DNA of 64,000 nucleotides from Felis catus (lineage: Eukaryota): NCBI RefSeq assembly GCF_018350175.1, contig NC_058368.1, positions 83,578,001-83,642,000 on the forward strand. The letters run 5' to 3'. The translations under genes and the position numbers were made by a program. A model generated the notes under the pieces. It had not been told where the DNA came from, made no database searches, and saw only the letters and a list, made by a program, of their open reading frames with translations. Positions 612 to 26,497 of this stretch are shown here, piece by piece. Positions within the stretch are counted from its first letter, which is position 1, and each line of letters begins with the position of its first letter.

Positions 612-2278
612 CCATCAGTCCTCTGAGGAAACTCCCCAGAGGCAACAATGACATCAACCTTTCCAAATATAATGATTAATTTTCAGTCTTCATTTTTCTC
701 AATGACCAGAATTGGGTATCATGGATCTCTTTCTCTTGTTTTTCCTTCATCATCAGAGACTGGATACCTTTACTGGAAATTCTTCATCTCACTGCCCTCT
801 TGCCTTTAGAGATTCCCACTCTTTCTGTTCAGATTTCTCCAGCATTTCATCTAGGGTCATAGTTGTAAATGCCAAATACCTCCTGAAAACCACCAAATGA
901 ATATTGCATACCTATCCTCTGCCCTGCACTCCGGACTAGGATATCAAAGTGCTTATTCAGTAATTTATCTTGGCTAGTAGACATACCACTCTTTCCTATT
1001 CTGGGGTGAGCCCTTGTCTCTCTTCCTCCTGTGTGCTTTCCTCAGTCCACCCCGTATTAGAAAATGTAAACCCCATTTTCAATATCTTTGCCCAATTAAA
1101 CTCAAAGCTAATACTTCACTTCTCTCATAAATCTAAAGGCATTAGCAAATCCTGTTGCCTTTCTGGTAGATAAATATGTCATAAAACCACCCCATTTTCC
1201 ACCCCATTACCCTTCTAACACACATTATTTCTCCCAACTTTTCACTCCTTCATTCTCCACGCAGACATTTGAGTAAGTCTTTAAAAATATGTTTTTCTCG
1301 AAACTCTCCCGTTATTCTCCAGGTCACTTGAAAGTACAATTACCTGGGACAACAAATAATCAAGCCTCATTGAACTCCCAGCCTTATTTTCACCATGTCT
1401 ATTCTTCCCTACTCCACTGCAGGCACACAGAACACTTGGCTATTTTTCAACAATAATCCTTTCTCATAAGTTTCATACTTATAGTCATTTTTTTTCCAGA
1501 AAACTTCTCTATTATTAGGGAATTTAACCTAACCACTATATGAACTAAACTCAAATGTTAGAGGCTTAACATCATAAAAATAAATTAATTCCTCTCTCAG
1601 GCAGAATAACATGTGATGGTTCCTAGTCAAGTTGTTCTATAAGTGGTGCTTATCCAAGCAGTGACTCAGAGATCCAAGTTCCTCCCATTAAATGTCTTTT
1701 TTTTTAATTTATAGCCAGGCTTCAGCCAAGGAAAAAGAGAGAAAGGGAGAATTAAGTCTCATGTCCCAGAAGTAAATGATAGCACTCTTATTGATACTCC
1801 ACAAGATGTTCTGCTCACATGGAATGCATTTATAGTGACATCTCACTGAATGTCCTGTCGGTATAATATGACCCTCCACTTCTATTCCACAGGATGTCCT
1901 GTTCACATAGGATGTACTTCCATTGATGTCCTGAGGGTTATCATATCCACATGGTTTCATCCACTTGGGAGAATACTGAGACATAAAGCCCTAAGAGGGC
2001 AAACACATTTAGGAACATCTCTACCTAATGATAGGAAAGTATCCATCTCCAATAGAATACTGGCCATCTCTGCCACATTCAGTCACTTTGCTCACCAACA
2101 ATTGCTAGATAGCCCTTTTTCCATGTATAGAATAAACCATCCTCATGAAAGAAAGTCAAAATCTGTCCAGTTATTGCAGCTTAAGTTCTCAGATTCCTGG
2201 AGGACTCAAAACAAAAGAGGGTCCTCTTGGCCTGCTCACTTACTAAGTAAAATATAAATAATTTCTGTCATCTGACTA

Positions 2279-2315
2279 TCAGAGTCCAGAGTGCTAACCA
2301 TTACACAATGGAACC
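2279..2315 (-). pseudogene. Tailless retropseudogene of the 5' half of tRNA-Gln(CTG)
   Basis: The minus strand reads GGTTCCATTGTGTAATGGTTAGCACTCTGGACTCTGA, matching 36 of 37 nt of mammalian tRNA-Gln-CTG as recalled and ending just past the anticodon. It is flanked by 18-bp direct repeats ctgtcatctgac(t/c)atcag (2265-2282, 2318-2335) and has no poly(A). Confidence 0.88.
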
Positions 2316-2977
2316 GACTGTCATCTGACCATCAGGAGAACATAAAGGATACAGTGTTTATACAGTGGTAAAACTGAAACAAGATAATTCAAGAAATGTT
2401 TCTATTCAGAAAGCAGAGGAGAGTAATGGAGACAGACATAGTAATTCAGCAATAGAGACATACAAACATTGCTATAATGCAGATGGAGAAGGCCTTAGTT
2501 CAGATGTCAAGGAGAAAAACATTTAACCTTGTTGTTGGTAGCTCCCTGCTCCACCTTGTCAATTATTCTACCTTATCCATGCTGATTCCTAAATATATTT
2601 GATGTGAACATGGGAGATATGTCTTCTTTGAGGGATGTACTTAAATGTACTTCTGCTCCAATGGCTTAAGGTAACCCAAACAATCAATAGAGATTGTTGT
2701 GTGTGTTTAAAAATTTCCTGCAGCTTATTTGTTTTTGATCTTCTGGATGTTTTTGTAATAAAAATGATATTATTATTTTTATGCTTCCAATAAATTTTAA
2801 GTGCTAGTAAGCAAAGTTATTTTATATTTTAAAAAATGCTGAGAGGAATAACAAGATGGTGACAGAGTAACAGGACCCTAGGCTCATCTCCTCCTATGAA
2901 CACAATAAGATAACTATCAAATCATTGTAAATACCACAGAAATAATCTTGAAGACTGAAGGAACAAAATCCACAACT

Positions 2978-11361: not shown

Positions 11362-11572
11362 AGGGATGCCTGAGTGGCTCAGTCAGTTAAGCATCTGACT
11401 TTGGCTCAGGTCATGGTTTCATGATTTGTGCGTTTGAGTCCCGCGTCAGGCTCTGTGCTGACAGCTTACAGCCTGAAGCCTGCTTCAGATTCTGTGTCTC
11501 CCTCTCTCTCTGCTTCTCTCCCAGTCATGCTCTGTTTCTCTTTCTCTCAAAAATAAATAAACATTAAAAAAT
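11362..11572 (+). mobile_element. CanSINE
   Basis: 15-bp TSD aataatattttatct. Confidence 0.92.
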
Positions 11573-14607: not shown

Positions 14608-14812
14608 AGGGGCATCTAGGTGGATCAGTTGGTTAAGCATCCAACTGTTGGTTTTGGTTCAGGTCATGATCTCATGGCTTCATGAGTTCGAGCCCCATGT
14701 CAGGTTCTGTGCTGGCAGTGCAGAGCCTGCTTGGAATTCTCTGTCTCTCCCTCTCCATGCCCTTCCCCCTCCCACACTGTATCTGTCTCTCTCAAAATAA
14801 ATACACAAACGT
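14608..14812 (+). mobile_element. CanSINE
   Basis: TSD aa(a/t)atcttt(a/g)gaata. Confidence 0.9.
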
Positions 14813-24879: not shown

Positions 24880-26497
24880 AATTTTATTTTTTAATATGTG
24901 ATTGTCAGGTTGGCTAACACATATTGTGTACAGTGTGCTCTTGGTTTTTGGGGTAGATTCCTGTGATTCATCACTTACATACAAGACCCAGTGCTCATCC
25001 CAACAAGTGCCCTCTTCAATGCCCATCACCCATTTTCCCCTCCCCCCATTCACCCTCAGTTTGTTCTCTGTATTTAAGAATCTCTTGAGGTTTGCCTCCT
25101 TCCCTCACTGTTTGTCACTATTTCCCCTTCCCTACTCCCATGTCCTTCGGTTAAGTTTCTCAAGATCCACATATGAGTAAAAATATATTATATCTGTCTT
25201 TCTCTGACTGACTTATTTCACTTACCATATAATGCCCTCCAATTCCATCTACATTGCTGCAAATGGCATTCTTTTATTCCTTCTCAATGCCAAGTAGTAT
25301 TCCATTGTATATATAAACCACATCTTCTTTACCCTTTCATCTTTTTATGGACATTTAGCTTCTTTTCATAATTTGGCTATTATTGAAAGTGCTACTATAA
25401 ACATTGGAGTACATGTACTCCTATGAATCAGCACTCCTATATCTTTTGGATAAATTCCTAGTAGTACTATTGCTGGGTCATAGGGTAGTTCCATTTTTAA
25501 TTTTTGGAGGAACCTCCACACTGTTATCCAGAGTGGCTGCACCAGTTTACATTCCTACCAACAGTGCAAGAGGGTTCCTGTTTCTCCACATCCTTGCCGG
25601 CATCTGTTGTTTACTGAGTTGTTCACTTTAGCTACTCTGACTGGTGTGAGGCGATATCTCAATGTGGTTTTGATTTATATTTCCCTGACAATGAATGTTG
25701 AGCATCTTTTCATGTGTCTGTTAGCCATCTAGATGTCTTCTTTAGAAAATAATCTATTCATGTCTTTTGCCCATTTATTCACTAGATTATTTGTTTTTCA
25801 GGTGTTGGGTTTGCTAAATTCTTTATAGATTTTGTATACTAACCCTTTAAAAATTTTTTTAATGTTTATTTCTGAAGGAGAGAGAGACAGAGTGTGGATG
25901 GGGGACAAGGGCAGAGAGAGTGGGAGACACAGAATCTGAAGCAGGATCCACGCCCTGAGCTTTCAGCACAGAGCCTGACACAGGGCTCGAACCCACAAAT
26001 CGGGAGATCATGACCTGAGCCGAAGTCGGACACTCAACCAACTGAGCCATCCAGGCGCCCCAAATCCAATATGTCATTTGAAAAAATATTTTCCCATTCC
26101 ATTGGTTGCCTTTTAGTTTTGCTGACTGTTTCCTTTGCAGTGCAGAAGGTTTTTGAGGTTTTTTGTTTGTTTGTTTTGTTTTGTGTTTATTTTTTTATCT
26201 TGGTGATGTCCCAATAGTTCATTTTTGCTTTTATTTCCCTTGTCTTTGGAGATGTGTCAAGTAAGAAATTGCTGCAGCTGAGGTCAAAGAGGTTGTTGCC
26301 TGTTTTCTCCTGTAGGGTTTTGATAGTTTCCTTTCTCACATTTAGGTCATTCGTCCATTCTGAGTTTAATTTTGTGTATGGTTTAAGAAAGTGGTCCAGC
26401 TTCATTCTTTTGCATGTTGCTGTCCAGTTCTCCCAGCACCATTTGCTACAGAGACTGTCTTTTTTTTTTTTTTTTTTCTTATTGGATACTCTTTCCT
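24880..26497 (-). mobile_element. 5'-truncated carnivore L1 (3'UTR plus ORF2 C-terminus), containing a CanSINE at 25850-26061 (-)
   Basis: GKWVMGIEEGTCWDEHWVLY-type 3'UTR and KLDHFL...YTK ORF2 peptide. Confidence 0.88.

Follow-up and report, generated by a model that had tools for sequence, protein, structure and literature searches.

Background

The closest described counterparts of the locus reported here are the tailless retropseudogenes of Noll et al. 2015 (PMC5322556), which are 5'-intact, 3'-truncated tRNA copies that end in loops, lie within a target-site duplication and carry no oligo(A) tail. A short complementarity to the target accompanies them, and their templates include both processed and unprocessed RNAs. 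The main text of that report, taken apart from its supplements, does not contain the string 'modif' and does not treat substitutions at modified bases. A second related product is the chimera of a tRNA half and LINE-1 (L1), in which tRNA nt 1-37 are inserted by L1 with duplications of 9-19 bp (bioRxiv 10.1101/2025.02.02.635956); outside its supplements, that preprint holds no passage tying mismatches to tRNA modification.

A third line of work concerns N1-methylguanosine at tRNA position 9 (m1G9). In tRNA-seq, a wrong base appears at position 9 of TRMT10A substrates; misincorporation during read-through of m1G9 is known for laboratory enzymes, and the signal vanishes in knockouts (PMC7293042, PMC5066629, PMC8062790). 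Those signatures arise in vitro, whereas the error considered here would have been made in vivo by the L1 reverse transcriptase (RT), ORF2p, and then inherited. No measurement of ORF2p behaviour on m1G templates was found in the literature searched. Likewise, literature listings, which mostly leave aside subscription papers and supplements, returned no link between retrocopy substitutions and tRNA modification, and a prior mention of a position-9 footprint is possible.

Results and discussion

A tailless tRNA-Gln half in the cat genome

The window, the whole 64,000-nt stretch of DNA that was analysed (Felis catus, NC_058368.1, positions 83,578,001 to 83,642,000), contains a 5' fragment of tRNA-Gln(CTG) at 2279-2315 (Table 1). 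The fragment covers nt 1-37 of a 72-nt gene, and the 3' half is missing. It stops one base past the anticodon, where nt 37 is followed directly by the duplication without oligo(A), and it carries no pre-tRNA leader. The direct repeats differ at a single position (2277 vs 2330) and form the top repeat family within 2000-2600; of 400 spots drawn at random from the window, only 1 had a flanking repeat as good. The only change within nt 1-37 relative to the Gln genes L006, L008, L012 and L018 of the same genome is G9 to T. A preliminary description of this DNA, made from the sequence alone, had proposed the tailless copy, the 18-bp repeats with one mismatch, the 4-nt overlap, the two extra 5' bases and the sole mismatch at base 9; all were recovered here, the last against genes of the same genome.

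Table 1. Positions of the tRNA-Gln retrocopy and its flanking features in the window
Feature	Position	Strand	Basis
Tailless copy of tRNA-Gln(CTG) nt 1-37	2279..2315	-	36/37 nt identical to genes L006/L008/L012/L018
Anticodon, nt 34-36 of the retrocopy	2282-2280	-	Alignment to Gln genes of the same genome
tRNA base 9, T in place of the G of all genes; likely m1G9 misreading	2307	-	Gene alignment and sister copies
Target-site duplication, copy at the 3' end of the fragment	2265..2282	.	18 nt, 94% identical to its partner
Target-site duplication, copy on the 5' side of the fragment	2318..2335	.	Partner of 2265..2282
Overlap of 4 nt between tRNA nt 34-37 and the duplication; putative priming complementarity	2279..2282	-	Sister copies generally show the same overlap
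Two extra bases at the 5' junction, likely non-templated	2316..2317	-	Match 0/13 distinct Gln gene leaders

Compared with the definition of Noll et al. 2015, the 5' end is intact, the 3' truncation is at least 10 nt and the length at least 30 nt; the duplication (18 nt, 94% identical) lies within 8-35 nt and is at least 70% identical; an oligo(A) tail is absent; and the terminal nucleotides complementary to the target (2-18 nt in the definition, here the 4-nt overlap at nt 34-37) lie in the anticodon loop. The fragment thus belongs to the known class of tailless retropseudogenes, and as a single insertion it is ordinary. Unlike the tRNA-half chimeras, which are fused to L1, it stands alone. 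Its target site is weakly A-rich and a poor endonuclease site, which makes it a weak example of the L1 type.

A full cloverleaf, a B box and a terminator, as a functional tRNA gene would have, are all absent at 2279-2315, and neither ARAGORN nor Rfam makes a call there, as expected of a half. The copy shows no sign of function and is valuable as a record. The three tRNAs that ARAGORN does predict in the window (11368-11453, 14614-14707 and 25971-26056) are the heads of tRNA-derived SINEs and not genes.

Base 9 is changed in most tRNA-Gln halves

Sister copies were sought in one assembly (2.43 Gb, 71 contigs) with up to 3 mismatches allowed, a limit that favours young copies. The fragment itself yielded 49 matches and its reversed control 0 (3 mismatches, whole genome), while a search anchored on G9 with a Gln-TTG gene yielded 54 matches, eight of them new. 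From the 57 loci, 40 halves were retained; the 17 dropped comprised 14 gene-like loci, the full-length L048, the 58-nt L037 and the duplicate L041. The last of these and L040 lie about 168 kb from each other and represent a single Gln half that was copied along with its flanks in a segmental duplication after insertion.

Base 9 was changed in 26 of the 40 independent halves (T 8, C 10, A 8, G 14). At the other 36 positions, only 31 of 1440 bases were changed (2.2%), with 4/40 at the next highest position; base 8 was changed in 0/40 and base 10 in 2/40. The binomial P for position 9 is 2e-33 at the observed background of 2.2% and 6e-17 even at 10%. The excess in sister retrocopies that the preliminary description had asked for is therefore present. 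In addition, all 15 full-length Gln loci (the 14 gene-like ones and one more) carry G9, and the T9 gene that would have spoken against a modification footprint was found in none of them.

The excess was not produced by the T9 query, as base 9 was changed in 23/37 copies of the G9-anchored set; the proportion was 23/36 in the set complete for any base 9 and 24/35 among copies with a good duplication. Changes occurred on four of five Gln isodecoder backgrounds, with three different letters and at unrelated sites. The copies are independent, having differing duplications and flanks that share just short SINE-type repeat matches, the dropped duplicate aside. Duplications in the 35 copies measure 12-21 nt, and the empty site at the junction reads T, G, A, A, A in 30, 31, 32, 30 and 19 of 35, respectively. 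These target sites and duplication lengths are L1-like, pointing to L1 ORF2p as the probable maker of the Gln copies.

The pattern extends to other m1G9 tRNAs

Other families were queried with the first 31-32 nt of tRNA genes from the same genome, leaving out matches that were full-length or longer than 42 nt. They were sorted by the list of position-9 methylation in Table 2 of PMC7293042, a map from a human cell line and not from cat germline. Base 9 was changed in 4/6 halves of iMet, 3/8 of Arg-CCT, 4/8 of Arg-TCT, 1/2 of Pro and 1/2 of Trp, 13/26 in sum, whereas the controls gave 0/18 for Gly, 0/26 for Glu and 0/1 for Ser (0/45 overall); one further Gly match, a member of a tandem gene array, stands outside the count. 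The smallest families (one Ser, two Pro and two Trp halves) carry wide uncertainty. Across the Gln, iMet, Arg, Pro and Trp copies, base 9 was changed in 39/66, with G in 27, C in 15, A in 13 and T in 11. The gene-like loci of the other families all have the reference base at position 9. Against the controls, Fisher tests give P of 5e-11 with Gln and of 2e-7 with the remaining substrates; with Gly as the sole control, P is 4e-6.

These families also correspond to measured RT errors in human tRNAs. According to PMC7293042, most isodecoders of Gln, iMet, Pro and Arg-TCT have an RT error rate of 0.05-0.2 at position 9, and Arg-CCT and Trp one of 0.01-0.08; Gly and Ser are absent from its Table 2. 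Glu-CTC has a rate of 0.0035, about 20-fold below Gln, and is given as a low-confidence m1G9 substrate, so that Glu serves as a negative control with some reservation. The T8-G9-G10 context, the fold and the distance to the 5' end are common to Gly, Glu and the substrates, and none of the 44 Gly and Glu copies is changed at base 9. The controls are at least as diverged as the Gln copies, and not younger, as judged by changes at non-CpG G (11/377 vs 6/325). The position-9 excess is thus mixed (T, C, A) and confined to TRMT10A substrates on the human list.

Halves were recovered unevenly (Gln 40, Glu 26, Gly 18, Ile 18, Asp 10, Ser 1 and Asn 0). All 18 matches of the Asn-GTT search were full-length, with no halves, and no His gene was present among the genome stretches extracted. 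Possible reasons for the unevenness are how abundant each tRNA is in the germline, how well its anticodon loop suits L1 targets, modifications that act as a block, and CpG loss that removes copies from the search.

Other modifications leave weak or no traces

A clear trace is left by m1G9 alone, and the other RT-blocking marks leave none. In Asp-GTC, m1A9 is nearly full in human cells (PMC7293042), yet base 9 was changed in just 1 of 10 halves. For m2,2G26 of Ile-AAT, no transversion at G26 was seen in 18 copies; changes at C25-G26 were of the CpG type only (5 and 5 of 18), and since C25-G26 is a CpG in this tRNA, m2,2G26 is not cleanly separable there. A34 was kept in 15/18 Ile-AAT halves, with G34 in 2. 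As a speculation, the templates may have been captured ahead of the other marks; alternatively, the enzyme may halt at those marks or copy them faithfully.

Three Ile-AAT copies (L254, L260 and L270) bear changes near the priming junction; two have G34, a possible inosine footprint, and two have G35. Separately, the Ile-AAT halves L249-L270 and L334 keep leaders in 10 of the 15 with a good duplication and mostly have an unedited A34, which suggests capture from very early nuclear transcripts.

The processing stage of the templates

Among the Gln copies with at least 3 extra 5' bases, 7/15 match the leader of their own gene over at least 4 nt. Leaders of other families would give 0.8 such matches, and 0 of 2000 shuffles reach 7/15. 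Base 9 was changed in 10/17 leader-bearing copies vs 14/19 flush ones (P 0.48), by which the idea that the change needs a mature template was rejected. Individual changed copies keep gene-matching leaders: L023 has the 7-nt leader of gene L018 and C9; L036, a TTG isodecoder, has the leader of L047 and A9; the iMet copies L169 and L173 have the 5-nt leader of L163 and C9; and L363 combines an Arg-TCT isodecoder and the leader of L361 with A9. It is therefore possible that m1G9 is added before leader removal, and these junctions suggest that it can precede that step. This agrees with the proposal of m1G9 as an early nucleolar mark (PMC12532308) and differs from PMC7293042, in which the signature, from data not shown there, is described as very weak among precursor reads. 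Thus, where the preliminary description saw the window copy as a possible fossil of a mature, modified tRNA or tRNA half, a modified template is supported but maturity is not required.

Whether the template was a 5' half cleaved beforehand or an uncut tRNA or pre-tRNA on which priming began within the anticodon loop bears on the same description, which had allowed for a half. We consider prior cleavage tenable but somewhat the weaker choice. The ends do bunch tightly at nt 36-38 in all families, the Gly, Glu and Asp copies, with C at nt 38, match nt 37 in 36/54 and nt 38 in 11/54, and a cleaved half is favoured for the tRNA/L1 chimeras (bioRxiv 10.1101/2025.02.02.635956). However, the same ends are expected if a T-rich target end primes on the loop purine, and internal priming was argued for by Noll et al. 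2015 (PMC5322556); an end at nt 37 with target complementarity fits it equally well. Moreover, the Arg-TCT copies L359 and L366 run 4-5 nt into the introns of L358 and L356 (at about position 1500 of the locus). They are copies of unspliced pre-tRNA, both with G9, and those two RNAs were hence not cut at nt 37.

Two further junctions were observed. L322 contains at 301-375 a full-length Glu-CTC copy that has a CCA end and matches the leader of gene L199 over 6 nt; the presence of both leader and CCA would represent an uncommon state of processing. In addition, CA or CCA precedes the halves L152, L153, L005, L307 and L321 at the 5' junction, possibly through a template jump onto the CCA end of another tRNA, by chance or as part of the duplication.

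Origin of the change at base 9

Taken together, the fragment at 2279-2315 is a tailless copy of tRNA-Gln(CTG) nt 1-37, the base 9 of which very probably results from misreading of m1G9 on a germline tRNA by the L1 RT. Since sister copies are mostly changed at base 9 and Gly and Glu copies never are, the copies likely record a tRNA methyl mark. We infer the causal role of m1G from the match to human modification data. The earlier proposal of a modification recorded as a DNA substitution gains support in the same way, as the pattern repeats in other m1G9 tRNAs and is missing from the Gly and Glu controls.

By this account, L1 ORF2p would nick the target DNA, and the freed end would pair with 2-4 nt of the anticodon loop (nt 34-38) and prime there. 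Copying towards the 5' end, the RT would meet m1G9, which does not pair normally, and read through it; between about one half and two thirds of the copies would receive a wrong base, with C, A and T of comparable frequency. It would then reach the 5' end of the RNA, adding in the window copy two untemplated bases, and second-strand synthesis would fix the error and leave the duplication.

Several other origins of T9 deserve consideration. An ordinary point mutation may have struck base 9 of the window copy after insertion; the one mismatch in its duplication indicates that the locus had time to mutate, and any single copy could have been hit by chance. The rates make such a coincidence highly improbable, since non-CpG G in the Gln halves changed to any letter in 6/325 cases (1.8%) while T9 alone accounts for 8/40 (20%) of the sisters. 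Even less credence, practically none, is due to lost or undetected tRNA genes with T9, C9 or A9, or to one master copy. Extinct genes are invisible, and the search covered one assembly with at most 3 mismatches, but the reference base is kept in 15/15 full-length Gln loci and in all gene-like loci elsewhere. To account for three letters across several isodecoder and leader backgrounds and five tRNA types, numerous genes would have to have been lost independently, and, apart from the one dropped duplicate, flanks common to the copies consist only of SINE-type repeats, contrary to a master copy.

Misreading of position 9 without methylation, whether caused by local structure, by a sequence hot spot or by stalling of the enzyme close to the 5' end, appears quite improbable. 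It draws on the link to m1G being made by a match to human data and on the Asp and Ile copies, in which not every expected modification leaves a trace. The unchanged Gly and Glu copies (0/44), equal in context, fold and 5' distance, argue against it, as do the adjoining bases 8 and 10 of the Gln copies, scarcely altered beside base 9. A variant of m1G9 misreading itself is that the RT wrote C9 in the window copy, forming, together with G10, a CpG whose later decay left TG. C is indeed the commonest replacement (15/39), and the mirror decay to C9-A10 is seen in 3/15 C copies (L035, L173 and L364), so that, if decay is symmetrical, decayed C9 may account for about 3 of 11 T9 copies, possibly including that of the window. 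As 11 T9 copies exceed the roughly 3 expected from decay, most T9 are primary, and for the window copy this route is rather unlikely.

Implications

On these grounds, we find it reasonably probable that mammalian genomes preserve, in tailless retrocopies, an inherited and datable archive of how germline tRNAs were modified, written by in vivo ORF2p errors at m1G9, and that TRMT10A acts before leader removal and before marks such as I34 and m2,2G26 are made. An RNA modification has apparently been converted into inherited DNA changes again and again. If the pattern holds, it would provide in vivo evidence of read-through at m1G by the LINE-1 RT together with its error spectrum, as well as a handle on the order of tRNA maturation, for which the human data differ between little m1G9 in precursors (PMC7293042) and an early nucleolar mark (PMC12532308). 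It would also call for caution in tRNA-seq, since the copies mimic modification signatures and could attract reads used for modification calls. It would offer a way to read germline tRNA methylation from genomes only, between species and through time; if true, assemblies alone could reveal, for any therian lineage, which tRNAs its germline methylated, at what stage of maturation, and when this changed.
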